DNA of 64,000 nt from Ignavibacteria bacterium (GTDB lineage: Bacteria > Bacteroidota > Ignavibacteria > Tepidaquicellales > OLB5). Each line of letters opens with the position of its first letter. Position 1 is the first letter of the stretch. The notes below the pieces were generated by a model that worked only from the letters and a program-made list of their open reading frames with translations, was not told the origin of the DNA and searched no databases. This document shows positions 14,463 through 48,721 of this stretch, piece after piece. The stretch lies in contig JAYRXC010000023.1 of assembly GCA_041917655.1 (NCBI GenBank), positions 89,809 through 153,808 on the forward strand, read 5' to 3'. Made by a program: the position numbers and the translations under genes.

Positions 14463-14467
14463 TAATC

Positions 14468-14770: not shown

Positions 14771-14878
14771 TTATCCGAATACAAATCCGATTACGATTAT
14801 TGCGAGCATAAGGAATATTGTTGTACCAATATATACATTGCTGCTCTTTTTAACCTGTTCCATCTGCTGTTGTTCCAT
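14771..14878 (-). CDS. 35-aa single-TM peptide S2 (MEQQQMEQVKKSSNVYIGTTIFLMLAIIVIGFVFG)
   Basis: Not in the ORF track (under 60 aa). SD AAGGAGA lies 6 nt upstream of the ATG. Paralogous to S1. Confidence 0.6.
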   Translation of the reverse strand: MEQQQMEQVKKSSNVYIGTTIFLMLAIIVIGFVFG

Positions 14879-15060
14879 TTTGATCTCCTTAAAAAGTTTA
14901 ATGATGAAGTTTTTTTCTTTTCTCTGTAACAAGTTATATCAAAACGGTTATAAGAACAATCACGCTAAGACGTTATATTGTTTCCAGAGCTGTTATTGAA
15001 AGGATTTTAGCATGAATAAATGCTGCTACAGAAGTATTCCGTGGTACCGGTATTTGAATA

Positions 15061-15099
15061 ATTCTGCCGCCCTGTTTCAGACGGCAGAATTGTTTTTTT
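15061..15099 (+). terminator. Plus-strand-oriented intrinsic terminator with no plus-strand gene upstream
   Basis: Stem attctgccg/cggcagaat followed by T7 on the plus strand. Lies just 3' of minus-strand peptide S1. Confidence 0.45.
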
Positions 15100-15122
15100 G
15101 CCGGATACCTGCGATAATATCT

Positions 15123-15230
15123 TCAGCCAAAAATCATGCCGACGATGATTATCGCAAGGAAAATTGTTATTGCTCCGGCAATAAAGAAATTACTTCTTTT
15201 TGTAAATGATGTTAGGTCAGTACTATTCAT
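15123..15230 (-). CDS. 35-aa single-TM peptide S1 (MNSTDLTSFTKRSNFFIAGAITIFLAIIIVGMIFG)
   Basis: Same length and collinear similarity to S2 (K11, S13, N14, I17, I21, L25-A26-I27-I28, G31, F34-G35). Weak SD gaagaggtg. Confidence 0.55.
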   Translation of the reverse strand: MNSTDLTSFTKRSNFFIAGAITIFLAIIIVGMIFG

Positions 15231-15434
15231 ATTTTTTTACACCTCTTCATGGTAAAGGTTGCCAAGATTGCTTTCAATAGCAACACTAAAATAATGCATC
15301 AAATAGCGTTAGTAAATAACGAAACAGGTTATTTAGAACTCAATCAGCATAAATCCGGCAACTAACCTAAATAAGCATTAGGTAAGGATCCTCGTCAATA
15401 AAAAACATGATTTAAGTCGATATGTTATATTTCA

Positions 15435-15462
15435 TAAAAAAAGAGGCCCAATTGAGCCTCTT
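15435..15462 (-). terminator. Terminator of the 2-oxoglutarate dehydrogenase gene
   Basis: Stem aagaggc/gcctctt followed by T7 on the minus strand. Confidence 0.65.
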
Positions 15463-15486
15463 GTAAGCTTCATAAAACGCAAAGCA

Positions 15487-27181: not shown

Positions 27182-28735
27182 TTAAAAATTCCATTCTTCG
27201 CTTTCATAGTCATATGACGACCGTGAGCCCTTCTGGGTTGCCTTATTATAAAGCATGGCACCTACCATATCCTTATATGATACGCCCTCGTCCATTTCAT
27301 CTTTTGCTATTTTTGAATTGTTATGCAGTCCTTCGAGCATAAACTCCATCATCGAAGCCAGCTCGTAGTCATTCTCAATTGTTTTGATATGCTTCTTGAC
27401 TGCTTTTTCAAGCCCGTCAATGCGTTTCAGCGCAGCAAAGTAATCATCAAACATCATATCATCATTAAGCTCTATGTAATTACCCCCTTCAAACCATTTT
27501 ATAATTTCCGCATATGGATCGGCGGCCGGTTGTTCCTTCTGTTCAGCCTGTTTCCTCGGCTTCTTCTGCAGGGGATCCGGGAAATACTTCCGGAAGATCT
27601 CCCTGACGCTCTTTCCTATCAGCGCGCGGCTTACTTTTACCGGGCCTTCCTGCTCGCCTTCAAAGACCAGTTCGATCTTTCCGGTCATCCCGGGCAGGGC
27701 AGCGCCCAAATCTGTGATCCTTGGAAAAATAATAGTCTCGCCGTTCATTATCGATCTTCTTTCGGCATTGCTCACAAGGTTTTCCATTGCAGAAATTGTT
27801 AGTCTTGCGCTAACGCCTGATTTCTGCTCTACAAACTCGCTGTTCCTGGCTTCATGAGCAGCCATTTCGATAATCTCTTTCATGTAATAGGGAATTATTA
27901 CATCCTTATCATGATGGCGCTTGATCCAGCTTTGTGATTCGGTTATCTTAATGCCGTCTTCAATGCTCTTGGGATAATGTGTGAGTATCTGAGAATCAAT
28001 CCTGTCCTTAAGCGGAGTAATTATATTCCCCCTGTTAGTGTAATCTTCAGGATTCGCGGTATATACTATAAATACATCCAGCGGGAAACGGATATTGAAC
28101 CCGCGGATCTGAATATCACGCTCCTGCATGATGTTCAGCAGACCGACCTGGATTCTCGGCTGCAGATCCGGCAGCTCGTTGATGGCAAAAATTCCTCTGT
28201 TAGTGCGCGGCACTATACCAAAGTGAATTGCTCCTTCGTGTGAATAATGCAGCCGCTGTGTTGCAGCCTTTATAGGATCTATATCTCCAATTAGATCCGC
28301 AATGGTTACATCAGGTGTTGCCAGCTTTTCGCCGAAGCGGCTTTCCCTGCCTATCCATTCGATCTCTGTATTATCTCCATGTTCATTCACAGCATCAACT
28401 GCGAATTTAGAAATAGGGAAGAATGGGTTATCGTTTATTTCGGATCCTTTTATGATAGGGGTAAACTCGTCGAGAAGGTCAACAAGCATACGGGCCATTT
28501 TTGTTTTTGCCTGACCCCTCAAGCCAAGGAATATAATGTCATGTTTAGCAAGTATAGCATTTATTACCTGTGGAACGACTGTTTTTTCATAGCCTATTAT
28601 GCCGGGGAATACTTCTTCCTTTTTCCTCAGCTTATCGACCAGGTTCTTCCTGATCTCATCTTTAACTGCAAGTACTTTATAACCTGATGCCTTAAGCTCA
28701 CCTAAGGTCTTTGGATGATTTGGTAATTGACCCAT
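27182..28735 (-). CDS. AAA+ ATPase, Mg-chelatase ChlI/BchI-like family
   Basis: Walker-A-like FLGLRGQAKTKMAR, Walker B GIFAINELPDL, sensor region IVYTANPEDYTNRGNIITPLKDR. Confidence 0.65.
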   Translation of the reverse strand: MGQLPNHPKTLGELKASGYKVLAVKDEIRKNLVDKLRKKEEVFPGIIGYEKTVVPQVINAILAKHDIIFLGLRGQAKTKMARMLVDLLDEFTPIIKGSEINDNPFFPISKFAVDAVNEHGDNTEIEWIGRESRFGEKLATPDVTIADLIGDIDPIKAATQRLHYSHEGAIHFGIVPRTNRGIFAINELPDLQPRIQVGLLNIMQERDIQIRGFNIRFPLDVFIVYTANPEDYTNRGNIITPLKDRIDSQILTHYPKSIEDGIKITESQSWIKRHHDKDVIIPYYMKEIIEMAAHEARNSEFVEQKSGVSARLTISAMENLVSNAERRSIMNGETIIFPRITDLGAALPGMTGKIELVFEGEQEGPVKVSRALIGKSVREIFRKYFPDPLQKKPRKQAEQKEQPAADPYAEIIKWFEGGNYIELNDDMMFDDYFAALKRIDGLEKAVKKHIKTIENDYELASMMEFMLEGLHNNSKIAKDEMDEGVSYKDMVGAMLYNKATQKGSRSSYDYESEEWNF

Positions 28736-28888
28736 TTAAAATTGCGTTCTTTCTTTTTTATTGAGATGAAAAATTAGCTAAATAAATCGTGTAATTCAAC
28801 TTCATAAATATTAGCTTTTAGCGTATAATTAAACAACATTCTGCGGGTGCGGCTTGTTCCTTTTGCATTGATCCTGCCTGCCGAATAT

Positions 28889-30340
28889 CTATTTGATCTC
28901 TTCCATTTTTTCCAGTACCCAGCTTCTGCCGATGAAATTCGGGGTATTCTTAGCTTTTAGGTATATTTCTTCCTTCAGCCCTTTCCCGGATGTCTTAGCC
29001 CGTATAAGATGCGCAGTCAGCCTAAGCAGCAGCGGATAGCTTGAAATACTTTCACGCGTAACCCTTCCGCTTGAAGTTATGAATTTCCTGAAGGCATCTA
29101 CTGCCGACTCTGCCTCGAAATAATGACCGAGCTCGTAATATGTTCTTATCAGCATCCATCTTACAGTAAGGTTAACCGGAATATCCGGTGATTTAATTCT
29201 GCTTAGATACTGAATCACATTATTATAGTCGCCTTTGGTTACGTTAAAATAACCCATAAGGAAGTTGTATGTGTTTTCCTTTACAGAAGGTTCAAGCTGA
29301 TCTCTGTAAGTGTTTATGAAATTTCCGGCCCATTGAAAGTCTCTGCAGCCAATAGCCTGCATAGCAATGTTATGATAGCTGCTATCGCTTACAAAACCGT
29401 GATCATCTCTGTATATGACGCCCCTGTTAACATACATTTTATTTATCTCGTGCAGGGTTTTTACATCTACGGGGCCTTTGGATGACTTAGAGAAAATGTA
29501 AGAGGCAAATATCATTTGCCAAAACTCGATATTATCCACCTGTCGGAATCTTTCAATATTTTCAAATGAAAGCTGCTTCAGCTTTTCACGGTATAAGCCA
29601 TTTGGATCGTTTACTTTGCTTAAAAGTCCGTAGTAATAGCATGCAACTAACGGATAGTTTTCCGGTTCATTCGTTTTTATTGTTTCAAGCGCATTTTCAA
29701 AGTTCAGCATCTCGTTAATTCTATCTATAAACACATTCCTGCTTTCATCAGCTTCAACAAATCTGTTCACTTCATAATCGTTAAGAGTTCTCAATATTGA
29801 AACAAGCATATATTTCAATGCTGCAGAGAGCTTTGTGCTGTTGCTTGTTATCTTGAATCTGGAATCATGGTTTTCGGTTAGCTGGTGCTTCAGTTCAAGC
29901 AGGTCATACCTCTTTTTAAGGAAACTTATGCTGTAACCTTCATGCTGATCCTGAATGCTTATTGCCAAATCGGCTTTTTTGTCAGCATAAGAAACGAGTT
30001 TTCTCTTCTGTAATTCTGATATTAACAGAGTGTCATGTGTGAACCGGTCATTGCGAAGCGCTAACTCAACTAAGTATTTTTCGCAAAGCTTTGTGGTGCG
30101 GTGAAGAAGATTTTTTACAACCTGTGTGTTCAGTTTTTCCCGCCCGTAAACTTCCCGGTAAACGGTTTCATCTGAAATTGCGTTTTCTTCAGGGTTGGGG
30201 TAAACGGAGGATAGATACACGAGAAATTTCACTATGTCACTACGGGTATTATGAAATGGAGACCGTGAAAACTCTGCCAATCCTGCCATTTCACTTTGGG
30301 TAAGTGTATTCAGAAGCTTATATACATTTTTAGTGCTCAT
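28889..30340 (-). CDS. Orphan ~483-aa all-helical (TPR-like) protein, family member P2
   Basis: Paralogue of P3 (hand count 26/50 identical in block YYYGLLSKVNDP...). N-terminal SPFHNTRSDIVKF. No signal peptide or TM, no SD. Confidence 0.8.
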   Translation of the reverse strand: MSTKNVYKLLNTLTQSEMAGLAEFSRSPFHNTRSDIVKFLVYLSSVYPNPEENAISDETVYREVYGREKLNTQVVKNLLHRTTKLCEKYLVELALRNDRFTHDTLLISELQKRKLVSYADKKADLAISIQDQHEGYSISFLKKRYDLLELKHQLTENHDSRFKITSNSTKLSAALKYMLVSILRTLNDYEVNRFVEADESRNVFIDRINEMLNFENALETIKTNEPENYPLVACYYYGLLSKVNDPNGLYREKLKQLSFENIERFRQVDNIEFWQMIFASYIFSKSSKGPVDVKTLHEINKMYVNRGVIYRDDHGFVSDSSYHNIAMQAIGCRDFQWAGNFINTYRDQLEPSVKENTYNFLMGYFNVTKGDYNNVIQYLSRIKSPDIPVNLTVRWMLIRTYYELGHYFEAESAVDAFRKFITSSGRVTRESISSYPLLLRLTAHLIRAKTSGKGLKEEIYLKAKNTPNFIGRSWVLEKMEEIK

Positions 30341-30345
30341 ATCCG

Positions 30346-30419
30346 GTGATTACGAATTAGCTCAAAATAATATAATATTTCACAAAAAACAATAAATATT
30401 GCTAAAATAGTGTGATTAC
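30346..30419. promoter_or_regulatory. Direct repeat GTGATTAC x2 (30346-30353, 30412-30419), candidate operator pair
   Basis: Copy 1 lies 6 nt from the P2 start codon and copy 2 lies 49 nt upstream of the cargo -7 box. The P3 cassette has the same geometry. Confidence 0.4.
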
Positions 30420-30460
30420 TTTTCGGGATTTTTCTTTTTGTTAGAGCGATTGCAGAAAAA

Positions 30461-30468
30461 TATATTTG
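30461..30468 (+). promoter_or_regulatory. Candidate -7 box TATATTTG of the cargo operon
   Basis: Exact TAnnTTTG match about 230 nt upstream of the ATG at 30699. Confidence 0.45.
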
Positions 30469-30472
30469 TGAC

Positions 30473-30698
30473 AGATAGCGTAACAAACAATAAACAAAAA
30501 GGGAAGTCAGGATGTTAATTTCAGATTTAGTTCTCCGAAACGCAGCACCCCAATTGCACGTAATATCCGGACTCCCAAGTCAGTTTATTGCGCTATCTAA
30601 CCGGGGAGGGATAACATTTCCCTCTCCGGAATTTTTAGCAAAGCAGTTATCCACAGCAAACGAAATTAACTTAAAAAAATAATAAGGAGATGTAAATT
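30473..30698 (+). promoter_or_regulatory. Long structured 5' leader of the cargo gene
   Basis: agatagcg (30473-30480) pairs with cgctatct (30591-30598). A GC hairpin ccggggaggg..ccctctccgg (30601-30629) is followed by aattttt, an A-rich linker and AATAATAAGGAGA. Confidence 0.4.
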
Positions 30699-32387
30699 AT
30701 GAAACGGAAATTTCATTTAATTGTTTTATTCACACTGCTTTTTGCCGGCAGCCTGAGTTCCCAGTGGACTTCCAATACATCGCAAAATCAGCAGCTTTGC
30801 GGAGCCACGGGTAACCAGTACGCACCGGTGGTTGTTAGTGACGGCTCGGGCGGAGTTATTTCGGCATGGATAGATGAAAGAACAGTGAACGTACAGAAGA
30901 TATATGTTCAGCGGTACAACGCTTCTGGTGTTGCTATGTGGCAGGCAAACGGAGTTGAGCTTGTGCCTTCACAGACCAATGCGGCGGACCTTCAGTGCGT
31001 GCCGGATGGCAGCGGCGGAGCAGTGATCTGCTGGATGGGATCAAGAGCAGGTACAGTATCTATGTTTTATGCACGTAAGATCAATTCAGCCGGGGTACCG
31101 CAGTGGCCTTCAGAAGTTGGTGTTAGCGGTGTATATAACGCTTCATATAATGATGAAAAGTGTTCAATTGCCCCGGACGGAAGCGGGGGAGTTTTGCTTG
31201 CTTACAAAAGATACAATAATTCCGTTTCGAAGTACGAAATTCACTGTCAGTACATTTCCTCAGACGGCTCGCGTTATTTCGGGAGCGGCGGAACAGTTGC
31301 TGCCACCTCAAATGTTTCCGCGTCATTTGATAATCCAAGAATTTGCTCAGATGATGCCGGCGGTGCGATCATAATATATCAGAATTATTCCAGGATCATA
31401 GCACAAAAGCTGAATAACCTTGGGCAGAAGCAGTGGGGAAGTGACGGATTTGATGTTTTCAGCTCTACAGTTGGAAATATGTTCATACCTGTGATCTGCA
31501 AAGATGGAGTTGGCGGCGCTATAGTTGCATGCATCGATGAAAGGGTGCCTTCCAATAATTTTGATATCTACGCACAGAGAGTTAAGAATGGCGCTTCAAT
31601 GTGGGGCGCAGGCGGTAAGCCGATAGCTGTAGGTACAGCGCGCCAGTGGGTTCCAAAGATTGCATATGACAACAATTACGGAGCATACATTGCTTGGCAG
31701 GATGAAAGAGAAAGTGCTGACAGCTCTAAGCCGTATTTGCAGAGGATTGATCTCGCGGGGAATCTTTACTTCCAGTCAAACGGCATCAGGATGGATCCCT
31801 ACAAGTGCGGTCTTATAGATATAACTTCCGGCGACAGCACAGCAGTTTACGCAATTGTTGCATCAGGTAATACTTATCCTCAATTCAATATCAATGTTCA
31901 AAAACTAAGCAGCGCGGGGAGCTTTCCATGGGGGATCAATTCTATTCCGCTTTCAACAGCCTTTTCCGCTAAGAATTTTTCGAAGTTTCCTTTAGCCGTA
32001 GATAATTCAGGTGCTCTTATTTGCGTGTGGGAAGATAACCGCAGCACCCCGGCAATTAAAGTATATGGCCACAAAATACAGGCATCGGGGCTTACCGGAT
32101 TCACAAATACCGTGGAGATACCGGAAAAGTTCAAGCTTGAACAAAATTATCCGAATCCATTTAATCCTTCAACACGCATAAGCTTTTCAATTCCTGAAAA
32201 AAGCATCGTAAAACTTAAGGTTTATGATGTGGCCGGCAGCGAAGTAAAAACGATATTGAATGCGGATATGCAGGCCGGGCATCACTCTGTACAATTCGAT
32301 GCAGTTAGCTTGAGCTCGGGCATTTACTTCTATACGCTTCAGGCAAATGGATTTTCAGAAACACGCAAAATGATATTAATAAAATAA
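30699..32387 (+). CDS. T9SS-sorted repeat (beta-propeller-like) secreted protein
   Basis: Signal peptide, about 8 repeats of the D-G-S/G-G-G-hydrophobic-W/Y type (SDGSGGVISAW, DGSGGAVICW, DGVGGAIVACIDER), T9SS tail. Confidence 0.75.
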   Translation: MKRKFHLIVLFTLLFAGSLSSQWTSNTSQNQQLCGATGNQYAPVVVSDGSGGVISAWIDERTVNVQKIYVQRYNASGVAMWQANGVELVPSQTNAADLQCVPDGSGGAVICWMGSRAGTVSMFYARKINSAGVPQWPSEVGVSGVYNASYNDEKCSIAPDGSGGVLLAYKRYNNSVSKYEIHCQYISSDGSRYFGSGGTVAATSNVSASFDNPRICSDDAGGAIIIYQNYSRIIAQKLNNLGQKQWGSDGFDVFSSTVGNMFIPVICKDGVGGAIVACIDERVPSNNFDIYAQRVKNGASMWGAGGKPIAVGTARQWVPKIAYDNNYGAYIAWQDERESADSSKPYLQRIDLAGNLYFQSNGIRMDPYKCGLIDITSGDSTAVYAIVASGNTYPQFNINVQKLSSAGSFPWGINSIPLSTAFSAKNFSKFPLAVDNSGALICVWEDNRSTPAIKVYGHKIQASGLTGFTNTVEIPEKFKLEQNYPNPFNPSTRISFSIPEKSIVKLKVYDVAGSEVKTILNADMQAGHHSVQFDAVSLSSGIYFYTLQANGFSETRKMILIK

Positions 32388-32449
32388 AAACATAATCTAA
32401 CAGTCCGCCCATTGTAAATATGTGCGGGCGGCAGATAAAGGAGAAAAAA

Positions 32450-32887
32450 ATGAAATTACTTTCGGTAATCATAATAGTTCTGAGTATTACCTGTGGAAAG
32501 CTTTTTTCCCAGGAGTTTCATGTGTGTGATTATGTGGATGATAACTGGAATCCGGTTGGAGCTTCTTCACAAATGAACGGGTCAGGCGGAGTGAATTTCC
32601 TGGCTAAGCTTCCCGAAAAAGTTTATGACCAGCTTTATATGTGGGTTATATATAAAACAGATGATTCGGGGAAGGATTCGGAATTTGTAAATGAGCTTGT
32701 GATGAGAATAGAAGAGGGATATGATATTGTGCATAATGGCGCAAGGTTTTTCTGTACTACTGAAAAGGTTTTCCTGCAGCCGGGTAACTACAGGATATAC
32801 TTTATATATGAGAATGATAAGGAACCGAATTTTAAATACGGCAGCCTGACTAAATATCTTGCAAAGGGCGAAGTGACCATAAATTAG
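32450..32887 (+). CDS. Small secreted or lipoprotein-like hypothetical protein
   Basis: SD AAGGAGA then the ATG at 32450. MKLLSVIIIVLSITCGKLFSQ signal with Cys. Confidence 0.6.
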   Translation: MKLLSVIIIVLSITCGKLFSQEFHVCDYVDDNWNPVGASSQMNGSGGVNFLAKLPEKVYDQLYMWVIYKTDDSGKDSEFVNELVMRIEEGYDIVHNGARFFCTTEKVFLQPGNYRIYFIYENDKEPNFKYGSLTKYLAKGEVTIN

Positions 32888-32902
32888 AAATGGAATTTCT
32901 GA

Positions 32903-32934
32903 GGGGATAGCCGGGAACTATCCCCTTTTGTTTT
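32903..32934 (+). terminator. Intrinsic terminator of the 30699-32887 operon
   Basis: Stem ggggatag/ctatcccc followed by ttttgtttt. Confidence 0.7.
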
Positions 32935-32977
32935 CCTGCCATACCGGGAGTCTCAATTCGTTGTAGGGCAGAAACTA

Positions 32978-34414
32978 CTATAAGAGTTCTTTCATTTTTG
33001 CAATGACCCATATTTTAGAGTTAAATGCAGCACCATTCAATGCCTTGAGGTACAATTCCTCGGGAAGCTTCTTATTTGATGCTTTATGCTTGATTAGCTT
33101 GTAGGCCTGTTTGGCAAATACAAGAAGCGGTTTTTTCAGATGTGAAGGCAGCACTTTATTTTTCTTATGAAATTGCCTTAATGCTTCAGTTCCCGAAAGG
33201 GCTTCTTCGTAATATCCCAGTTCATAATAACACCTTATTGAAAGCGTGGCCACATGTGTCCTTGTCATTACATTATCGATCTTCATTTTGCTGATATATT
33301 GAATGCTCTTTTCGTATTCTTTTCTTTCGAAGCAGCTGCGTGCCATACAAATGTTATAAGTATCATCTGGCGTTCCCGGCGGCAGTTTATACTTATAGTC
33401 ATTCAGGAATTTTTCTGCCCAGTCGTAATCTCCGGCGCTAATTGCCTGGAACGCGATGTTATGGTAGTTGTTTTCCATAATATAGCCCAGCTCATCTCTT
33501 GTTAATATATCCCGCGAAACAAAGAACTTATTAATTCCATGAATCTCCCTGCTCGGGTCGTACTTTGGAGGAGTGTTTGAAAAAATGTAAGCTGCAAATA
33601 GCAAAGTCCAGCAGGTACCCTGGTCCTGGTATTTCATGTTATCGAGGTTTTCAAACACAGTTTTTTTCAGCTCTTCCCTGTATTTCCCATCCGGATCATT
33701 CATTTTGCTCTGCAGACCGTAGTAGAAAACTGCGGTTATCGCATAGTACGGAGAATTTATCAGCCTTAGGTTCTCAATATATTTTTCAAAATCAAAATAC
33801 TTGAAGTATCCATTGAAGATTTCGTCGCTTTCTATAACGGAATTCACATACTTAAATACTATGAAGTCGTTTGCGATTCTAAGCAGATTCAGAATGTAAT
33901 AGTTTACAAATGCTTCCCCCCGGTTCAGCGCATTTTCTGTTTTCTGCCGGAAATTTCTGAGGCTGACTACCAGAGATTCTTTAAGTTCTGTGTAATCATA
34001 GTATTTTTTCAGGTAGTCAATGGTATAGTATTCGTTTTTAAGGTTTGCAATTGCATTCTCAATTGTTTTTCCTGTCAGCCGGTCATGTCCTCTTCGGGCG
34101 AGTTCAAATGAAAGTGCGTTGGTTTTAGCGGCTTCATCCTTCAGAAGCCCTGTAACAGTCAGAAAGTTCAGCAAATGTTTTTGCGTCCTGCTTAACAAAT
34201 TGATTATTACTTGTTTGTTGAAGTTTTGTGTTCCGTAAACATAGATATATACTTCTTCTCTGTTTAGTTCCGTTACCGGTAATTTCTTCTTAATGTAATC
34301 ATAGAATTTTATCAAATCGCTTCTGCCGTTGAAAAAGGGCGATTTCAGGTATTCCCCGAATTTTTCCAGAGATTCGGCATCCAGAGAGTTGAGAATAAGC
34401 AATGCATTTTTCAT
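32978..34414 (-). CDS. Orphan ~478-aa all-helical (TPR-like) protein, family member P3
   Basis: ATG at 34414 (MKNALLILNSL..) aligns with the P1 and P2 N-termini; the ORF track extends to a GTG at 34459. FGEYLKSPFFNGRSDLIKFYDYI. Confidence 0.8.
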   Translation of the reverse strand: MKNALLILNSLDAESLEKFGEYLKSPFFNGRSDLIKFYDYIKKKLPVTELNREEVYIYVYGTQNFNKQVIINLLSRTQKHLLNFLTVTGLLKDEAAKTNALSFELARRGHDRLTGKTIENAIANLKNEYYTIDYLKKYYDYTELKESLVVSLRNFRQKTENALNRGEAFVNYYILNLLRIANDFIVFKYVNSVIESDEIFNGYFKYFDFEKYIENLRLINSPYYAITAVFYYGLQSKMNDPDGKYREELKKTVFENLDNMKYQDQGTCWTLLFAAYIFSNTPPKYDPSREIHGINKFFVSRDILTRDELGYIMENNYHNIAFQAISAGDYDWAEKFLNDYKYKLPPGTPDDTYNICMARSCFERKEYEKSIQYISKMKIDNVMTRTHVATLSIRCYYELGYYEEALSGTEALRQFHKKNKVLPSHLKKPLLVFAKQAYKLIKHKASNKKLPEELYLKALNGAAFNSKIWVIAKMKELL

Positions 34415-34419
34415 TTTAG

Positions 34420-34510
34420 AGTGATTTTTCTGAGTCAAGCTAATAGCAAATTTTACCACAATATCGCAATATAATGCTAACAGAGCATTAAAATAAGTGA
34501 TTTTTTCTGA
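34420..34510. promoter_or_regulatory. Direct repeat AGTGATTTTT(T)CTGA x2 (34420-34433, 34496-34510), candidate operator pair
   Basis: All 14 bases of copy 1 recur in copy 2, which carries one extra T. The GTGATT of copy 1 lies 7 nt from the P3 start codon and that of copy 2 lies 48 nt upstream of the cargo -7 box. Confidence 0.45.
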
Positions 34511-34544
34511 CTAAAATATTCTTTTTTTCATAAAGTCATGCATC

Positions 34545-34552
34545 TATCTTTG
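34545..34552 (+). promoter_or_regulatory. Candidate -7 box TATCTTTG of the SBBP cargo operon
   Basis: Exact TAnnTTTG match about 195 nt upstream of the TTG start at 34748. Confidence 0.45.
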
Positions 34553-34556
34553 TAAA

Positions 34557-34747
34557 GTTAGCGCAGTTAAGGTTATACCATAAGATTTTCAATTCATACG
34601 ACTTCCGACAATATTCAGCATGAAAAAACCCCGCATTGGTGAACTTTTTTACCATGCGCTAACTAAGGAAGGCACTCTGTTTAACAGAGTGCTTCTCCTG
34701 TCAAATTCTGAAATTAGAAAATTTAAATAAATAATAAGGAGAACAAA
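34557..34747 (+). promoter_or_regulatory. Long structured 5' leader of the SBBP cargo operon
   Basis: gttagcgc (34557-34564) pairs with gcgctaac (34656-34663). Hairpin gcactctg-tttaa-cagagtgc (34672-34692), A-rich linker, AATAATAAGGAGA. Confidence 0.4.
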
Positions 34748-36364
34748 TTGAACAGAACAATTATTCTATTTCTAATTTTAATAACAACTTCAGTTTTTTC
34801 GCAGATTTCTCAACAATGGGCTTCCAGGTACAATGCATTTGAAAGTTCGAACGAGAATCTATACGATATGAAGTATGATGGAGCGGGCAACATCTATTTG
34901 TGCGGCGCAAGTGACAGCATTGCAACACTATCTGATGCTATAGTACTAAAGTACAATTCAAATGGTGTTCTATTGTGGAGCTCCAGGTATAACGGACCTG
35001 TAAACGGATACGATAACGCATTTAGTATTGCGCTGGATAATTCCGGTAACGTTTACTTCACAGGCTCCAGCCAGGGTAGCGGTACCGGGAATGATATTAT
35101 AATTGTTAAATTGAACTCAGCAGGGGTTCAGCAATGGGCGCAAAGAATTAACGGTACAGCCAATCAATCAGATTTTGGAATATCAATTGCTGTTGATAAC
35201 ACGGGAAACGTGTATTGCTGCGGCACTGTAAACAGGACAGGTTCTAACGAGGATATTGTAGTTGTTAAGCTGAACTCATCAGGGGCGCAGCAATGGATAG
35301 AATACTACAATTGGGTGAACGGATTTGAAAGCAGCCAAAAACTTCTGCTTGACGCTTCCGGAAATGTATATATTACCGGCAGAAGCGTTAACGCTTCAAA
35401 TAACTACGATATTGTTACTCTAAAATATAACAACGCCGGGGCAAACCAGTTCAGCGTACGTTATAACGGCGCGTCCAACAGGGATGATTACCCCGGCAAT
35501 ATGGATATAGATGCTTCCGGAAATATTTTTGTATGCGGTGTTTCGCTTACAGCATCCAGCGGAAATGAAGGTGTATTGATCAGGTACAACAGTTCTGGTG
35601 TTGAACAATGGGTATCAAAATACAACTATTTGGGAGCATTTGATGACGGGTTTGAAGATGTGAAAATTGATAACAGCGGCAATATCTTTGTCTGCGGATA
35701 TAGTGAAAGCAGTGCCAATGTGTCAAACTTTGCAACTGTTAAATACAGCAGCGCCGGCTCAATTACCTGGGTTCAAAGATACAGTGGACCTATTGCCTCA
35801 GCAGACAACGCAAAGAGTTTGTATATCGATAATGCACAAAATGTAATTATTACCGGATCGGGAGTCGGCTTAAACACTGATTTTGACATTGTAACAGTAA
35901 AATATACCAATGCAGGAAGCCAGGTATGGGACCAAAGATATAATTTTGCAGGGGCTCAGGATCACGGCATCAAAATAGCCGGTGATAATACCGGAAGTAT
36001 CTATGTTGCCGGCTACAGTTATTCTCCTTCAACCCCGGATATTGTACTGGTCAAGTATTCGCAGCCATCAGGTGTAGAACCTGTTTCAGGGAATATTCCT
36101 GTGGACTATTTTCTTAGCCAGAATTTCCCGAATCCGTTTAATCCTCAAACAAAGATAAATTTTAGCCTGCCTCAGGATGGGTTTACTGAACTTATGGTAT
36201 TCGATGTCACAGGCAAAGCAGTAGAAACAATTGTTAAGGAAAACCTGAACGCCGGCGAATACTCAGTTGATTTTGATGCTTCCGGATTAACTTCAGGAGT
36301 GTATTTCTACCGCATTTCATCAAATGGTTACTCAGTTACAAAGAAGATGATTCTGATAAAATAA
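34748..36364 (+). CDS. T9SS-sorted SBBP-repeat beta-propeller protein
   Basis: Repeats D(N/A)SGN(V/I)Y(V/F)(T/C)G and (T/V)VKYN(S/N)(S/A)G..QW, signal peptide, T9SS tail. TTG start 7 nt after the SD. Confidence 0.8.
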   Translation: MNRTIILFLILITTSVFSQISQQWASRYNAFESSNENLYDMKYDGAGNIYLCGASDSIATLSDAIVLKYNSNGVLLWSSRYNGPVNGYDNAFSIALDNSGNVYFTGSSQGSGTGNDIIIVKLNSAGVQQWAQRINGTANQSDFGISIAVDNTGNVYCCGTVNRTGSNEDIVVVKLNSSGAQQWIEYYNWVNGFESSQKLLLDASGNVYITGRSVNASNNYDIVTLKYNNAGANQFSVRYNGASNRDDYPGNMDIDASGNIFVCGVSLTASSGNEGVLIRYNSSGVEQWVSKYNYLGAFDDGFEDVKIDNSGNIFVCGYSESSANVSNFATVKYSSAGSITWVQRYSGPIASADNAKSLYIDNAQNVIITGSGVGLNTDFDIVTVKYTNAGSQVWDQRYNFAGAQDHGIKIAGDNTGSIYVAGYSYSPSTPDIVLVKYSQPSGVEPVSGNIPVDYFLSQNFPNPFNPQTKINFSLPQDGFTELMVFDVTGKAVETIVKENLNAGEYSVDFDASGLTSGVYFYRISSNGYSVTKKMILIK

Positions 36365-36394
36365 ATTTTATATAACACTGAAAGGATACTAAAA

Positions 36395-38005
36395 ATGAAA
36401 AAATTACTTATTCTGATATTGTTTCTTAGTATAACATCAGCTTATACACAGGTCTCACAGCAGTGGGTTTCCAGGTACAGCGCTTCCGGAGGCAGTGACT
36501 CTCCTACCGATATGGCAATAGATGCCGCAGGCAATGTATATGTTACCGGTATAAGCATTGTAAACGGCACAAGCTCCGATTTTTTAACAATAAAATATAA
36601 TGCGGCGGGGGTGCAGCAATGGGAATCGAGGTTCATTGGAAACGGTGGATCGAACAACGACGAAGCATATTCTATTGGCCTGGATGCTTCCGGGAATGTT
36701 TACGTTGGAGGAACAAGTTTTGGAGGAGGTACAAGCCTGGATATCATGATCGTAAAATACAGTAACTCAGGTTCGGTAATCTGGGAAGTAAGATATACCA
36801 ATGCCGAAGCGCGTGAAGATGAGATAATAAAAATGATAGTTGATGGAGCAGGCAATATTTATGTGGGCGGAATTTCGACCTATGCTGCAACCCAAAAGGA
36901 TTTCGTTGTTTTGAAGTATAACTCAGCCGGGCAGCTGCAATGGGCAAGAACTTACAACAACAGCGGTAATAACAATGACTACCTCTCTAATATAGCGGTG
37001 GATGCATCTGGAAATGTATATGCTACAGGCTCCAGCTACGTACCCGGCAACAGCAGCGATTTTGTAACATTAAAATATAACTCAGCAGGTACACTACAGT
37101 ACGCTTATTCGCTGAATGTGGGGGGTGATGAAGTTGGGACTGAAATTGCGGTTGATGGTTCAGGTAACGCATATGTTTCCGGTTACACAGACGCATATGG
37201 TACCGGTTTCGACTTTTTTACCTATTCCCTTTCATCAACAGGCAGTTTCAGATGGCTGCACAGGTACAATGGAGGCGCTAATGCCGAAGACAGGCCGCAG
37301 GGAATAGTTGTTGATGCATCAGGTAATGTTTATGTTGCAGGATTCAGTAACCAGGGAGCAACAGGGTTTGACCTGCTGACTGTTAAGTATAATTCTTCAG
37401 GTGTTGAACAATGGGTAAGGCCATTAAATGTTGGCGGCGATGACAGGGCTTATGATGTGAGTATGGATGCCGGCGGCAATTTGTATCTAGCGGGTAAAAC
37501 CAATGCATATGGTACAGGCGATGATTTCCTTTCATGCTCATATAACTCAAACGGAGATTTCAGGTGGTTGATGGCATATAACAACGCACCCACAAACGGA
37601 AATGATTACGCGCTGAAAATTCTGACTGATGCTTCAGGAAACGTTTTTGTTACCGGGGCAAGCAGCGGAGGCGCCAATGATTACGCGACTATCAAGTACG
37701 CCTCAATTACAGGTATACAGCCGCTGAATAACGAAATTCCAAACGGGTATTCCCTGGATCAGAACTATCCAAATCCGTTCAACCCGGAAACACAGATACA
37801 GTTCAGTATCCCTGAACAGGGAACAGTTAAACTGGCGATATACGATATCAGCGGTAAAGAAGTTGCAAAACTGGTTGATGCTGATCTCGGTGCCGGTGTG
37901 TATAGTTACCGGTTTAATGCATCCGCTCTTTCAAGCGGAATGTATTTCTACAGAATTACAGCCGGCAGCTTCACAGAAACAAAAAAAATGATCTTGATTA
38001 AATAA
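36395..38005 (+). CDS. T9SS-sorted SBBP-repeat beta-propeller protein (tandem paralogue)
   Basis: Same repeat family (DASGNVYVTG, LKYNSAG.LQW), signal peptide, T9SS tail. Confidence 0.8.
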   Translation: MKKLLILILFLSITSAYTQVSQQWVSRYSASGGSDSPTDMAIDAAGNVYVTGISIVNGTSSDFLTIKYNAAGVQQWESRFIGNGGSNNDEAYSIGLDASGNVYVGGTSFGGGTSLDIMIVKYSNSGSVIWEVRYTNAEAREDEIIKMIVDGAGNIYVGGISTYAATQKDFVVLKYNSAGQLQWARTYNNSGNNNDYLSNIAVDASGNVYATGSSYVPGNSSDFVTLKYNSAGTLQYAYSLNVGGDEVGTEIAVDGSGNAYVSGYTDAYGTGFDFFTYSLSSTGSFRWLHRYNGGANAEDRPQGIVVDASGNVYVAGFSNQGATGFDLLTVKYNSSGVEQWVRPLNVGGDDRAYDVSMDAGGNLYLAGKTNAYGTGDDFLSCSYNSNGDFRWLMAYNNAPTNGNDYALKILTDASGNVFVTGASSGGANDYATIKYASITGIQPLNNEIPNGYSLDQNYPNPFNPETQIQFSIPEQGTVKLAIYDISGKEVAKLVDADLGAGVYSYRFNASALSSGMYFYRITAGSFTETKKMILIK

Positions 38006-38018
38006 AGGAGAACATAAT

Positions 38019-38186
38019 ATGAACGCGGCTGCAAAACCTTCGCTATTATCATCAGTTCTAACGGTACTCGTAATTACAATTCCCATTGTGATTGTTACTC
38101 AGCTGTTGGGTCTGGGAATAGGCACAGCAGGAATTGGTGTAATAATTGGTGTCTTATATGCCTTGATCAGGTACAAAAAAGCTTAA
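38019..38186 (+). CDS. 55-aa two-helix membrane peptide (MNAAAKPSLLSSVLTVLVITIPIVIVTQLLGLGIGTAGIGVIIGVLYALIRYKKA)
   Basis: Not in the ORF track. SD AAGGAGA lies 7 nt upstream and the start is 13 nt after the cargo stop. A terminator follows. Confidence 0.55.
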   Translation: MNAAAKPSLLSSVLTVLVITIPIVIVTQLLGLGIGTAGIGVIIGVLYALIRYKKA

Positions 38187-38200
38187 CCCAGCGATAGATA

Positions 38201-38231
38201 AAAAAAGCCCCGGTATTTTTCCGGGGCTTTT
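38201..38231. terminator. Bidirectional intrinsic terminator
   Basis: A6-gccccgg-tattttt-ccggggc-tttt. Confidence 0.75.
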
Positions 38232-38255
38232 AAATTTCACTTTGAATATCAAAAG

Positions 38256-38687
38256 CTATTTATAATAATAGATATATGAATTAAGGTTCTCTATCTCCTG
38301 TTTCTTTTCTTCCGCGTCTTCCTGCATCAGGTCGCGCATTGATACCACTCCAATGAGCTTTTCACCGTCTCTGACAGGCATATGCCTTATGCCTTCCTGC
38401 TGCATTATCTTCATGCAGTCATTATATGAATCGTGGGCTTCCATAAGGATAACACCCCTGGTCATGACTTCATCGATCGGGGTAACCTCCATGTTCAGCT
38501 TTCTGGCTGCGCACCTTATCATAAGGTCGCGTTCGGAAAAGATCCCTTTCAGCTTTCCGCCGTCATCCAGTACGGGCACTGCCCCAACATTATTTTTCGC
38601 CATCTCGCTTACAACTTCATAAACGGTCATACCCGTGTTTACATAGAACATACTTTTATTGGTACAGATATCACGAAGTGATTTCAT
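38256..38687 (-). CDS. CBS-pair domain protein
   Basis: Two CBS motifs (VGAVPVLDDGGKLKGIFSERDL; IRHMPVRDGEKLIGVVSMRDL). Confidence 0.8.
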   Translation of the reverse strand: MKSLRDICTNKSMFYVNTGMTVYEVVSEMAKNNVGAVPVLDDGGKLKGIFSERDLMIRCAARKLNMEVTPIDEVMTRGVILMEAHDSYNDCMKIMQQEGIRHMPVRDGEKLIGVVSMRDLMQEDAEEKKQEIENLNSYIYYYK

Positions 38688-39107: not shown

Positions 39108-39515
39108 TTAAGCCGGTTTGTTTTCGCCGGCTGGATTTCCTGCACCATCCTTCTTTTCGTTTTCGGTGCAGATATCATCAACGAAGCTGAAGCGGCTGCT
39201 GCATTTTGAGCGGAACTTCTCTTTTTCCTCCGGTGTCATGGCTTCGTACTTGGCTCTTAATTTATGCTTCCACATTTCATCGGGGTAATGATGGTGCCTT
39301 TTGCCGAATCCTCGCCCCATTGTGCCGAATAATATTTTTGAAAGAAGGAGCAGTCCGGCGGCTTGCCAATAGCTTACTACCGGCCCGCTGAATATTGCGG
39401 GAATGAGCGCATTCCAAAGTAACATTACTATTACAGAGGAAACCGCGAGAATCAGAATCATCTTTATAAGGAACAGGGGTCCCCTGATATATTTTTTGTG
39501 TTTCATATCGTTCAA
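39108..39515 (-). CDS. Single-pass/two-TM membrane protein, candidate anti-sigma or Spy/CpxP-like partner
   Basis: Lies 20 nt downstream of the ECF sigma gene. N-terminal TM helices and a charged tail with an LTxxQ-like MTPEEKEKF. Confidence 0.4.
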   Translation of the reverse strand: MNDMKHKKYIRGPLFLIKMILILAVSSVIVMLLWNALIPAIFSGPVVSYWQAAGLLLLSKILFGTMGRGFGKRHHHYPDEMWKHKLRAKYEAMTPEEKEKFRSKCSSRFSFVDDICTENEKKDGAGNPAGENKPA

Positions 39516-39535
39516 TATTTAAATTTTTTAGTTGT

Positions 39536-40147
39536 TCAGGAAGTAATTTCATCATAAAGCTCCTGCAGCTCTTCTCTCAGGTACAGCTCGGCATATCTCT
39601 TTCTTGAAAGCAGGGTGTTAATACCGGTTCCGGTAATTTCAGATATTTCCCTGAAGCTTTTCCCTTCAAGCTCATGCATGATGAAAACTTCTCTTTGTTT
39701 TTCGGGCAGATTGTTAAGCAGCTCTTCGAGCATTGGCCAGAATTCCTGCCTGGTGAATAAAATATCCTGTGACTGTGTATCTTTGAAATGGCTGTCTTCC
39801 ATCCTGTACGAAGTATTGAGCTCGTCATCGAAAGTGTGTTCGTTCATTTTATCAAGCGAAACGGGTTTGATCTTCCTGTACCAGTCAATGATCTTGTTTG
39901 AGGCGGCCTTAAAAAGCCATGATGCGGCTTTTTCTATCGGGTCTTCACGCATGGTTTTGGTGAACTGGTAGAATACATCCTGCAGAATATCTTCAGCATC
40001 AGATTCAACTGCAACCCTGCGTTTTATGAAGCCAAGCAGCCTCGGCGACTCCTTTTCGATAACTTCCTTTAAACGGGAGTTTTGTTTTTCCAGTTTTTCC
40101 TTCAACTTATGATCTTCCGGAAGCTCCCTTTGTACAGCTATTTCCAT
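39536..40147 (-). CDS. ECF-type RNA polymerase sigma-70 family factor
   Basis: Region 2 (DAEDILQDVFYQF..W.FKAASNKIIDWYRK) and region 4 HTH (LPEKQREVFIMHELEGKSFREISEITGTGINTLLSRKRYA). Confidence 0.85.
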   Translation of the reverse strand: MEIAVQRELPEDHKLKEKLEKQNSRLKEVIEKESPRLLGFIKRRVAVESDAEDILQDVFYQFTKTMREDPIEKAASWLFKAASNKIIDWYRKIKPVSLDKMNEHTFDDELNTSYRMEDSHFKDTQSQDILFTRQEFWPMLEELLNNLPEKQREVFIMHELEGKSFREISEITGTGINTLLSRKRYAELYLREELQELYDEITS

Positions 40148-40426
40148 TTAGTAAAACAGGATCTTTTATTAACATCTTTCCTTTACATTCATTGAGACGG
40201 TTCCTCCAAAATAATATTTTATTATTAAATAATATGTTGTAATGTAAAACCCATTGAAGTACTTCCTTGGTTTAAAATAATAAAGTATGTAATTGTAAAC
40301 AGCAGTATTTTATTGCTTTAATTTACCCGTTTCACATAATCTGTTTTTGTTGATTCTGTTTGCGGATATTGCTAACTTGTAAGAATTTTTAATTAATTTC
40401 GAACATTTCTAAAAGGAGAACAAAGA

Positions 40427-41653
40427 ATGAAAACACACCTTCATACCATCTTGTTTATGCTTATTTTTATTACGGCTGTTTCAAAATCAGACTGGCAGCC
40501 GCAAACTTCAGGCACCACCGAAAATCTTTATTCGGTTTATTTCCTGAACGAAGTTTCCGGCTGGGCAGTTGGCGCTAACGGAAAGATCATTAATACCACC
40601 AATGGCGGTACTACATGGACACCACAGAGCTCAGGTACAACACAAACTCTCTTCAGCGTGAAATTTGTAACGCAGAGCGTTGGATATATTGTAGGCAGCC
40701 TGAATACTTCGCTCAGAACTACAAACGGCGGGGTAAACTGGGTATCAATGGGGATCGCAAACATGACCAGCATCAATGACATAGATTTCGGGGATATAAA
40801 CACAGGCTATGTTTGCGGGGCCGATGGCGATATTTCTAAAACGACTAACGGCGGAACAAACTGGGTGAAGTCTGATGTTTCAAGTACCGATTTTTTTGTG
40901 ATTGATGCAGTTGATGATAACACTGTTTATGTATGCGGTATCAGCGGAACTATCTACCGAACAACCAACGGCGGTACAAACTGGACGCAGCAGATAACAG
41001 GCTCCAATAATTACATAAGCAGCATAGTATTCACAGATGCATCGAACGGTTATTTTACTACGCTGGGGCTAAGTGAAGATGTACGCCGAACAACCAACGG
41101 CGGACTGAACTGGGCTGCGGTTACTTCTCCCGGTAATTCACCCGGGCTTAATGATCTTTTTGCCGTTTCATCTTCTGTTGTTTATGGAGTAGGACCAAAC
41201 GGCATAATTAGAAGAACTACAAATAGCGGATCAAGCTGGGAGCGGCAGCCCTCAGGTGATACGGTTTCTTTCTTCAGGGGCATTCACATGGCAAGCTCAA
41301 ATGTTGGCTATATAGTTGGAAACGGAGGCAAAATACTGAAGACTTTAAATGGAGGAATTGGAATTCAGCAGATCAGCACAACCGTACCCGCTGGATTTAA
41401 GCTGGAGCAAAACTATCCTAACCCGTTTAACCCGGTTACGAATATAGAGTTTTCGATACCCTCCAGCGGTAACGTGAAGCTCTCGGTGTTTGATGTATCT
41501 GGAAGGAGCATTGAAACGCTGGTTAACGGTAAGCTGCAGGCGGGTGTATATAAAGCAGATTTCAATGCAGGTGAACTTGCAAGCGGTATTTATTTCTATA
41601 CGCTGGAATCACCCGGTTTCAGCATTACCAAAAAGATGATATTAGTGAAATAG
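40427..41653 (+). CDS. T9SS-sorted Ycf48/BNR-like beta-propeller protein
   Basis: About seven T(T/L)NGG.(N/T)W repeats, signal peptide, T9SS tail, SD AAGGAGA. Confidence 0.8.
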   Translation: MKTHLHTILFMLIFITAVSKSDWQPQTSGTTENLYSVYFLNEVSGWAVGANGKIINTTNGGTTWTPQSSGTTQTLFSVKFVTQSVGYIVGSLNTSLRTTNGGVNWVSMGIANMTSINDIDFGDINTGYVCGADGDISKTTNGGTNWVKSDVSSTDFFVIDAVDDNTVYVCGISGTIYRTTNGGTNWTQQITGSNNYISSIVFTDASNGYFTTLGLSEDVRRTTNGGLNWAAVTSPGNSPGLNDLFAVSSSVVYGVGPNGIIRRTTNSGSSWERQPSGDTVSFFRGIHMASSNVGYIVGNGGKILKTLNGGIGIQQISTTVPAGFKLEQNYPNPFNPVTNIEFSIPSSGNVKLSVFDVSGRSIETLVNGKLQAGVYKADFNAGELASGIYFYTLESPGFSITKKMILVK

Positions 41654-45095: not shown

Positions 45096-45141
45096 GATTT
45101 TTGTATAGTTTTACAACACTGAAAATTCATAAATTGTGTAC

Positions 45142-48627: not shown

Positions 48628-48713
48628 AGAAAACTAATATATGGATCGTAAAAACATATAGAAAGACAAAATAATGACTAATTCTGACGATAGGCTGGAA
48701 GTTAGAAATCTTA

Positions 48714-48721
48714 TATTTTTG
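48714..48721 (+). promoter_or_regulatory. Candidate -7 box TATTTTTG of the FG-GAP cargo gene
   Basis: TAnnTTTG match about 100 nt upstream of the ATG at 48824. Confidence 0.35.

Follow-up and report, generated by a model that had tools for sequence, protein, structure and literature searches.

RusR-related proteins face type IX secretion cargo operons in Ignavibacteria and are candidate cassette-specific regulators with paired, phased putative operators

In a 64-kb stretch of an Ignavibacteria bacterium genome (contig JAYRXC010000023.1, positions 89,809 to 153,808; hereafter the window), four genes, P1 to P4, stand head-to-head with operons for cargo of the type IX secretion system (T9SS). 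The P proteins were found to belong to the superfamily of RusR, a candidate regulator of ribose utilization in Bacteroides thetaiotaomicron, and the gaps between the P genes and the cargo operons contain paired direct repeats whose sequence differs from cassette to cassette. From the homology, the conserved synteny, the spacing and joint change of the repeats, and the conservation of an RNA structure, we consider that the P proteins probably act as cassette-specific DNA-binding activators of the divergent cargo operons, with a putative tetratricopeptide repeat (TPR) domain as the sensor and an additional RNA layer in one clade.

The open reading frames (ORFs) of the window were taken from a program-made list and checked at the coordinates given in an earlier note on this DNA. 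The four units comprise the following features.

28889-30340, minus strand: P2, 483 aa, all-helical; candidate regulator of the RusR superfamily (ORF, structure model and family alignment)
30699-32387, plus strand: cargo 1, 562 aa, signal peptide and T9SS tail (PF18962, E 1.9e-10)
32420-32887, plus strand: second gene of operon 1, small (~145-155 aa), lipoprotein-like N-terminus (from the ORF)
32978-34414, minus strand: P3, 478 aa, paralogue of P2
34748-38005, plus strand: cargo operon 2, encoding SBBP beta-propeller proteins of 538 and 536 aa, both T9SS-tailed (PF06739, PF18962)
7348-8796, plus strand: P1, 482-aa family member
3271-7095, minus strand: P1 cargo operon, a fibronectin type III (fn3) gene at 6784-7095 followed by T9SS-tailed genes at 4991-6703 and 3271-4974
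47152-48627, minus strand: P4, 491 aa, relative of the RusR (BT2802) family
48824-50635, plus strand: P4 cargo, FG-GAP/UnbV_ASPIC protein with a T9SS tail

The P2 and P3 genes and their divergent T9SS-tailed operons were present where the earlier note had located them, the same layout was repeated at P1 and P4, and the non-coding gaps measured 358 bp (30341-30698) in the P2 unit (unit 1) and 333 bp (34415-34747) in the P3 unit (unit 2), as had been reported. The P3 frame is open up to a GTG at 34459; the family alignment (profile hidden Markov model, HMM) puts the start at the ATG at 34414. The layout of the P1 unit had to be corrected, in that P1 lies on the plus strand and its cargo operon on the minus strand, the latter headed by a previously unlisted gene. 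Neither P1 nor P2, P3 or P4 has a Shine-Dalgarno sequence, whereas the 562-, 538- and 408-aa cargo genes carry AAGGAGA, in agreement with the contrast noted earlier. The gene heading the P1 cargo operon (6784-7095, minus strand) encodes a 103-aa fibronectin type III protein lacking a signal peptide (PF00041, E 5.6e-10) and sits within the stretch that had been taken as the P1 gap. In L043-L045 and several other loci of the sample described below, the first cargo-operon gene is likewise small (~100-150 aa).

Six cargo proteins (30699-32387, 34748-36364, 36395-38005, 48824-50635, 4991-6703 and 3271-4974) carry the Por_Secre_tail domain (PF18962) at their very C-terminus, with E values from 2.7e-7 to 1.8e-14, which identifies them as T9SS cargo; their signal peptides were read by eye off the N-termini. 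The cargo had been described as propeller-type. Both P3 cargos contain SBBP beta-propeller repeats, the 562-aa P2 cargo has its tail as the sole Pfam match, and the P4 cargo carries FG-GAP/UnbV_ASPIC domains. In L039, L040, L041 and L046, the 562-aa cargo has orthologues that are followed by a 143-145-aa gene, and a terminator scan placed a terminator-like site at 32901-32927, after the second gene of operon 1. The closest relatives of the P and cargo proteins of the window come from Ignavibacteria metagenome-assembled genomes.

P2 and P3 are clear paralogues, being 36% identical over 486 aa (BLAST, E 6e-90); the hand-counted block with 26 identical residues of 50 proved exact, and the shared N-terminal SPF(F/H)N.RSD..KF and C-terminal YYELG blocks are visible in the translations. 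P1 was 22-23% identical to P2 and P3 (BLAST, E ~1e-24). P4 had no BLAST link to P1-P3, and its kinship with them comes from profile-profile comparison only. The recurrence of the family at 7348-8796 and 47152-48627 thus stands for both genes, for P4 at the profile-profile level.

P4 matched the NCBIfam profile NF058569, 'BT2802 family ribose utilization protein', with residues 1-490 aligned to positions 1-494 of 502 (E 1.5e-41). Its score of 143 bits is below the curated cut-off of 550, which indicates homology to, yet a position outside, the curated family. P1-P3 gave no match to this profile at E<=1. When the P1-P3 clade (A1, 25 sequences) was compared with the P4/RusR-like clade (A2, 25 sequences), hhalign returned a probability of 95.6% (E 1.2e-8) over 438 columns, covering both proteins end to end and placing the two clades in one superfamily. 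An exhaustive profile search retrieved 11,037 clusters at 50% identity with E<=1e-3 and 4,798 with E<=1e-30; among the 150 best matches listed, nearly all were 465-505 aa long and aligned over their full length. Pfam holds no model for the family. The P proteins had been regarded as an orphan family resembling no known regulator of T9SS substrates or polysaccharide utilization loci (PULs); both descriptions have to be abandoned, given the size of the family, the full-length match of P4 to the BT2802/RusR profile and the remote relationship of P1-P3 to it. Judged from these profiles, P1-P4 are new subfamilies of a very large, Pfam-less RusR superfamily.

RusR (BT2802) is the only studied member of this superfamily. 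Its deletion in B. thetaiotaomicron resulted in no growth on ribose and ~10% induction of the adjacent rus locus, and it was called a candidate positive regulator without homology to known PUL regulators (bioRxiv 10.1101/574913). It was still treated as 'putative' in 2025 (PMC12596196), and its own expression is not induced (10.1101/574913, PMC12596196). The gene context of RusR, that is, the ribokinase and SusCD ribose-utilization genes, was not found beside the P genes, whose neighbours are T9SS-tailed. Further RusR-like members of ~505 aa were observed one gene away from the P4 orthologues in two related loci (L047 2390-3919 and L048 2476-3987). Other large genes lie divergent to them, in L048 one for a Kelch propeller, and the L048 member has its own AGAATACTATG repeat pair, 65 bp apart.

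The pairing of P genes with cargo was assessed in 50 related loci, comprising 38 genomic loci with a family member and 12 obtained by exact-protein look-up. The ORFs were called with a purpose-written simple caller, and T9SS tails were marked by an HMM built on the eight tails of the window. In the enrichment count, small and probably spurious ORFs were skipped and genes one to three of the divergent operon were inspected. A T9SS-tailed operon was faced by 47 of the 70 assessable family genes, compared to 3 of 172 other genes of at least 300 aa in the same loci (67% vs 1.7%, odds ratio ~115, Fisher p 7e-29, a significance inflated by the non-independence of orthologous cassettes). This neighbourhood check had been proposed in the earlier note, and the dedicated coupling of partner and cargo suggested there is strongly supported by the conserved divergent synteny across Ignavibacteria. 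Divergence from the upstream neighbour was seen in 53 of the 60 family genes that have one. Many of the remaining neighbours are cut by contig ends, and others are signal-peptide BNR-like propellers with dockerin-like ends. The partner of a P gene is therefore best described as a secreted repeat protein, usually but not always T9SS-tailed.

Independent gene calls gave the same layout in L039-L048. The orthologues of cargo 1 are always divergent from P2-like genes, the FG-GAP/ASPIC cargo is kept beside the P4 orthologues at 49% and 44% identity, and orthologous P-cargo pairs in general are kept at 44-55% protein identity. Tandem cassette arrays are common (L001, L008, L011). In L039, a close relative whose P2 is 84% identical, the P2 unit is followed directly by the CBS-domain gene and the entire P3 unit (32978-38186 in the window) is missing from that position, while L041 and L046 have both units. 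Since L039 has the P2 unit but not the P3 unit at this position, the units behave as modules that are gained or lost.

The P2/P3-type gaps of the window and the related loci, 18 altogether, were lined up for a repeat search. Each contains two same-orientation copies of RTGATTAYTTT. Site A lies 1-9 nt 5' of the P start codon, and site B lies ~50 bp 5' of the cargo -7 box, just before the TTG of the -33 element. Aligning the four window gaps with MAFFT gave no useful information; the repeats, as well as the leader described below, emerged from the comparison of orthologues. The sites found in the window are listed here.

30346-30357, plus strand: unit 1, site A (GTGATTACGAAT), separated from the P2 start codon by 5 nt
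30412-30423, plus strand: unit 1, site B (GTGATTACTTTT), spaced 66 bp from site A; the cargo -7 box lies ~50 bp downstream
34420-34433, plus strand: unit 2, site A (AGTGATTTTTCTGA), separated from the P3 start codon by 5 nt
34496-34510, plus strand: unit 2, site B (AGTGATTTTTTCTGA), spaced 76 bp from site A; the cargo -7 box lies ~50 bp downstream
48628-48638 and 48704-48714, plus strand: sites of the P4 unit, AGAAAACTAAT abutting the start codon and AGAAATCTTAT, 76 bp apart
7347-7333 and 7264-7250, minus strand: repeat of the P1 unit, AAAACCA(C/A)TATAAA, 83 bp apart

In unit 1, GTGATTAC occurs at 30346 and 30412, and the pattern GTGATTAC-N58-GTGATTAC had one match in the window and none in 100 shuffles; this repeat is kept in the orthologous cassettes of L039, L040, L041, L046 and L001. 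In unit 2, AGTGATTTTT has only two occurrences in the 64-kb window, at 34420 and 34496. The P4 orthologues keep an AGAAAYCNAAT pair, spaced 76-77 bp in L047 and 65 bp in L048. The motif varies by cassette type, and sites A and B of one cassette change together. It reads TGATTACT in type 1 (P2 type, spacing 66 bp), TGATTT(A/T)T in type 2a (P3 type) and TG(A/T)TTATT in type 2b (a third P clade), the type 2 spacing being 76 bp. Autocorrelation of the gaps peaked at offset 66 for type 1 (7.83/12 vs 4.62±0.81 over all offsets) and at offset 76 for type 2 (9.25/12 vs 4.96±0.75), ~4-6 standard deviations above the other offsets.

An unsupervised scan was performed on 76 cassettes of the whole family, in which the best direct repeat of the start-proximal 11-mer was recorded. 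The best repeat fell at 64-66 or 75-78 bp in 26.3 cassettes of 76, where a uniform distribution would give 3.1 and a control with the 11-mer taken from another cassette gave 4.6±1.4. Smaller peaks appeared at 85-89 and 95-99 bp. The period of roughly 10-11 bp suggests helical phasing, since a protein that contacts a single face of B-DNA would be expected to give spacings ~10-11 bp apart. This spacing rule is followed by at least 12 unrelated motif classes. P is the only cassette-specific protein that lacks a signal peptide, and because the motifs are cassette-specific and P is the sole cassette-specific cytoplasmic protein, it is the obvious candidate to bind them.

The predicted promoters and leader RNAs of the cargo operons are given below. 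The promoters are predicted to be of the -33/-7 type known from Bacteroidota.

30438-30468, plus strand: predicted cargo promoter of unit 1, TTG at 30438-30440, 20 nt, then TATATTTG at 30461-30468
34545-34552, plus strand: predicted cargo -7 box of unit 2, TATCTTTG
7119-7112, minus strand: predicted cargo -7 box of the P1 unit, TAAATTTG
30473-30637, plus strand: type 1 leader RNA, closing helix 30473-30480 with 30591-30598, hairpin 30601-30629, then AAUUUUU
34556-34698, plus strand: type 2a leader RNA, closing helix 34556-34565 with 34655-34664, hairpin 34671-34693, extended base

All 18 leader-bearing cassettes have the -7 box in the same position, and in both the P2 and P3 units it lies ~200-240 nt upstream of the cargo start. 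For the P genes, the exact -7 box (TAnnTTTG) was found in 17 of the 76 cassettes at scattered positions, and no P promoter is claimed.

At the 5' end of the predicted cargo mRNAs, a structured leader of ~130-170 nt was found in the window and in L001, L002, L003 and L039-L046. Its first nucleotides, G[A/U]UAGCG, pair with CGCUA[U/A]C ~100-130 nt downstream to form a closing helix, and a strong hairpin follows directly. Compared with shuffled sequences, the RNAfold z-scores were -5.15 for type 1 and -4.48 for type 2a. A pattern search returned 20 leader instances, all in P-cargo gaps, with three subtypes that correspond to the three operator types. The covariance model R1, built from subtype 2a alone, scored the unit 2 leader at 134.9 bits and found type 2b at E 1e-6 to 1e-3 and type 1 weakly (E 0.01-0.6; window type 1, E 0.11); in 692 kb it gave nothing convincing outside the P-cargo gaps. 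Across 12 sequences, 93.5% of the cells were paired, compared to 36-45% with slid partners; 31 cells were doubly changed vs 10.6±2.6 in shuffles (0/500), and 9 of 16 hairpin pairs had changed on both sides; the alignment had been fitted to the model, and this favours the structure. Within type 2 the closing helix does not vary, and relative to type 1 it shows an A-U to U-A swap.

The type 1 hairpin (30601-30629) consists of an 11-bp stem with 8 GC pairs, is followed by AATTTTT ~60 nt before the start codon, and was the top terminator-like site in 28700-38400 in the terminator scan. Its orthologues keep the closing helix, and the U-run is present in 5 of 6. In types 2a and 2b, the hairpin is kept and no U-run follows. 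An attenuator or a riboswitch-like element is the most natural reading of the predicted type 1 leader. Unpaired stretches such as YCCCGCAWUGGUGAA and GCGCUAACUAAGGA are highly conserved, and in some of its parts the leader surpasses the P proteins in conservation. Rfam gave no gathering-level match in the whole window, and at E<=5 the sole match in 30400-34800 was antisense and due to chance (MCS4, E 0.97). The P2/P3-type leader was absent from the P1 and P4 units, the P1 cargo having no long leader; the leader is limited to three related subclades, and the other family members gave no match to the leader model. In a metagenome scan with the 15-mer TGCGCTAACTAAGGA, most matches were chance ones, and 1 of 80 loci (L109) held a true leader by R1.

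An antiterminator pairing, a Shine-Dalgarno/anti-Shine-Dalgarno switch and a leader peptide were sought by eye; each fitted one subtype and all were dropped. The type 2b leaders (L043 5691-5860, L044 5678-5861 and L045 5659-5861) have a conserved UAAGGAUGAUG at the foot of the hairpin that resembles a Shine-Dalgarno sequence with start codons. It opens a short, poorly conserved frame of ~20-25 codons through the hairpin, and types 2a and 1 have no such AUG.

Given the family alignment, AlphaFold2 modelled P2 confidently as an all-helical protein of 26 helices (mean predicted confidence, pLDDT, 89). The Foldseek matches of this model in the PDB were TPR solenoids only (best E 1.6e-3, TM 0.2-0.5), and the weak matches include IFIT5, NprR (ranks 39-42), kinesin light chain, LGN and subunits of the anaphase-promoting complex/cyclosome (APC/C). 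No TPR match in Pfam exceeded the gathering score, the best being ANAPC3 with 23.1 bits in P3 (cut-off 27.2) and TPR_19 with 12.9 bits in P2; some P homologues carry a precomputed PF12895 match. Membrane segments and kinase, receiver and sigma domains were absent from the P proteins. A conserved N-terminal helix, 'NxQVxxNL' (P2 residues 71-78), has a signature that differs per motif class (VVK, VI(I/V), V(T/A)R, (I/T)MK, VMW etc.). This helix would suit a recognition helix and is our candidate for one, a correlation confounded by the common descent of whole cassettes.

The earlier note had offered three options for the partner, namely a specific transcription factor, an antiterminator binding the leader RNA and a cargo-specific cytoplasmic factor. 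The first fits best because of the RusR homology and because the promoter region shared by P and cargo contains direct repeats that are cassette-specific and helically phased. We propose that a P oligomer would bind two cassette-specific direct motifs of ~10-12 bp on the same helix face, 64-66 or 75-78 bp apart. Site B, just 5' of the -33 element and ~50 bp before the -7 box, would be an activator position, while binding at site A, 1-9 nt from the P start codon, would lead to autoregulation of P. The putative C-terminal TPR solenoid may serve oligomerization, the sensing of a signal, or both. In the P2/P3 clade, the structured cargo leader may provide a second layer, with possible transcription attenuation at the terminator-like hairpin of the P2 type.

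Several observations weigh against this proposal. No DNA-binding domain was found in the P proteins: Pfam and NCBIfam were blank for P1-P3, PDB profile searches with both family profiles returned weak TPR or unrelated matches alone, and the earlier statement that no classical helix-turn-helix (HTH) is detectable was borne out by Pfam, PDB profile and fold searches, all negative or insignificant. Scans of the P proteins in Pfam and NCBIfam revealed no XRE-type HTH, and OmpR/PhoB Trans_reg_C gave no Pfam match in 16 N-terminal fragments at E<=10 and no PDB profile match. When residues 1-100 of P2 were modelled separately (pLDDT 82, no beta-strands), the Foldseek top matches were the OmpR-family domains of SaeR and CadC at an insignificant E of 3-5. 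An OmpR-type winged helix was also tried by hhalign against the DNA-binding domains of PhoB, OmpR and CpxR and was not supported (probability 0.4%, E 0.17). The top alignment of that comparison coincides with a by-eye likeness of SxExIYxxVYG...QVVxNLxSRL to SREQLLNHVWG...DRTVDVHIRRLRKAL, and the OmpR-type winged helix is kept as a lead only. In addition, the most basic segment of P is the C-terminus, not the N-terminus. As for the repeats, about two-thirds of the cassettes have no clear repeat at the canonical spacing (by the 11-mer criterion, in AT-rich DNA), the P1 repeat has an atypical spacing of 83 bp and lies far from the P1 cargo promoter, and common descent of whole cassettes likewise confounds the association of motif class with P clade. 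The cargo promoters and transcription starts are predicted only. Furthermore, RusR itself is not known to bind DNA.

The leader invites a different explanation, in which P would be an RNA-binding antiterminator or processing factor on the cargo 5' leader and, in the P2 type, would prevent termination at the hairpin and U-run. The leaders are long and unusually stable, show compensatory changes, outdo the P proteins in conservation in some parts and were confined to P-cargo gaps across 692 kb; the type 1 hairpin with AATTTTT is the best terminator-like site of its region, and TPR-like solenoids can bind RNA, with IFIT5 among the weak fold matches. However, the leader occurs in three related subclades only and is missing from the P1 and P4 units and from most other family members, and in types 2a and 2b the hairpin is not followed by a U-run. 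Site B is upstream of the predicted transcription start and hence outside the RNA, and ~10.5-bp phasing is a property of B-DNA. Since P1 and P4 do without a leader and the DNA repeats are found family-wide, the leader is not the general mechanism, and we consider an RNA-binding P unlikely.

Lower again in our ranking, and improbable, is the reading of P as a TPR chaperone, adaptor or scaffold that serves its neighbouring cargo in the cytoplasm, for example by holding the pre-protein until export; another factor would then bind the repeats. A TPR solenoid like those of peptide-binding adaptors (kinesin light chain, LGN, APC/C subunits) is indeed the only fold signal, and there is one P per cargo operon. 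Nevertheless, the RusR phenotype is transcriptional, as the ~10% induction in the mutant indicates, and the partners of RusR are cytoplasmic kinases and a PUL. The cargos of the P clades are structurally unrelated (SBBP propellers, FG-GAP/ASPIC proteins, fn3 proteins, BNR-like proteins with dockerin-like ends), and the repeats are cassette-specific with no other cassette-specific cytoplasmic protein to bind them. We regard as scarcely credible the idea that the adjacency is a by-product of densely packed T9SS-tailed genes with no functional meaning. The background is high, with 8 T9SS-tailed ORFs in the 64-kb window, one of which (40427-41653) is paired with an extracytoplasmic function (ECF) sigma factor instead of a P gene; yet the enrichment over control genes, the retained divergence and the persistence of orthologous pairs at 44-55% identity refute chance adjacency at the level of synteny.

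For P as a cassette-specific activator, the closest parallel is RusR itself. Both are ~500-aa cytoplasmic all-helical proteins without a Pfam domain, and RusR is encoded beside the locus that needs it for induction; they differ in that the predicted targets of P are T9SS cargo operons, whereas that of RusR is the ribokinase/SusCD ribose PUL. In the searchable papers, no account of binding sites, a leader RNA or a mechanism was found for RusR. Nor did these papers connect RusR-like proteins with T9SS cargo or describe the operator spacing rule or the leader RNA presented here.

Streptomyces antibiotic regulatory proteins (SARPs, such as AfsR and DnrI) combine an OmpR-type winged helix with a BTAD/TPR-like domain. 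They bind direct repeats, phased by whole turns, by the promoter of a pathway-specific operon, and there is typically one per gene cluster. The P proteins would resemble them in having a small DNA-binding head with a helical-repeat domain, phased direct repeats and one regulator per cluster. Unlike SARPs, they have no supported OmpR fold, their N-terminal model has no beta-strands, their sites are 6-7 turns apart instead of 1-2, and both phylum and targets are different. The RNPP regulators (PlcR, NprR, Rap, PrgX) and phage AimR share the one-component design of a DNA-binding head with a TPR sensor that is proposed for P; the P proteins differ in having no XRE-type HTH, no adjacent small peptide gene was identified, and the NprR fold match was no better than those of other TPR proteins. 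The Bacteroidota PUL and T9SS regulators (hybrid two-component systems, SusR, ECF sigma/anti-sigma pairs and PorXY-SigP) follow a like logic, with paralogous regulators beside their own secreted or surface locus, but belong to protein families unrelated to P. As for the leader, riboswitches and attenuators also have a long-range closing helix followed by a hairpin, and type 1 adds a U-run; the P-cargo leader differs in having no Rfam match, no antiterminator pairing that could be found and, in types 2a and 2b, no U-run.

To our knowledge, the known regulators of individual T9SS substrates are largely PorXY/SigP and a few ECF sigma factors. Loss of RusR has a clear effect in B. thetaiotaomicron, a model gut symbiont, and the present analysis links the mode of action of RusR with the regulation of T9SS substrates and with a very large family. 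It supplies predicted operator pairs with a rule for their spacing and exact coordinates, a helix that is a candidate for recognition and whose signature tracks the operator sequence, predicted promoters and a conserved leader RNA absent from Rfam. We put forward, as a tentative extension that may well prove too broad, that the P/RusR superfamily could be a major unrecognized class of one-component transcription factors in Bacteroidota, Ignavibacteriota and Chlorobiota, in which a new type of DNA-binding head would read direct repeats 6 or 7 turns apart, and which would have radiated per T9SS cargo operon in Ignavibacteria and be joined by a new leader RNA in one clade. If true, this regulator class of Ignavibacteria and Bacteroidota would play a role comparable to that of hybrid two-component systems or SARPs and would offer a route to the inducing signals of hundreds of uncharacterized secreted proteins.

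Some further features of the window were observed. A GH97 glycoside hydrolase gene (45136-47136; PF10566, E 1.5e-87) is convergent to P4, 15 bp from its 3' end. It is the sole carbohydrate-active gene adjoining a family member in the window, which is of interest in view of the link of RusR to sugar utilization, and it is absent from that position in L047 and L048. A 1.4-kb region of low GC content (36%) without long ORFs, 14100-15486, lies upstream of a T9SS-tailed metalloprotease-like gene (12642-14099, minus strand); a decayed P gene was sought in this region and none was found, and the region holds a tRNA-Leu(GAG) at 14468-14552 (minus strand) and several hairpins. Finally, 39108-41653 is a regulator and cargo unit of another kind. 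An ECF sigma factor gene (39536-40147, minus strand), with a gene for a small putative membrane protein at its 3' side (39108-39515, minus strand; together a sigma/anti-sigma pair at 39108-40147), is divergent from a T9SS-tailed BNR/Ycf48-like propeller gene (40427-41653, plus strand). The same sigma-factor block is found again beside P units in L039, L040 and L044.

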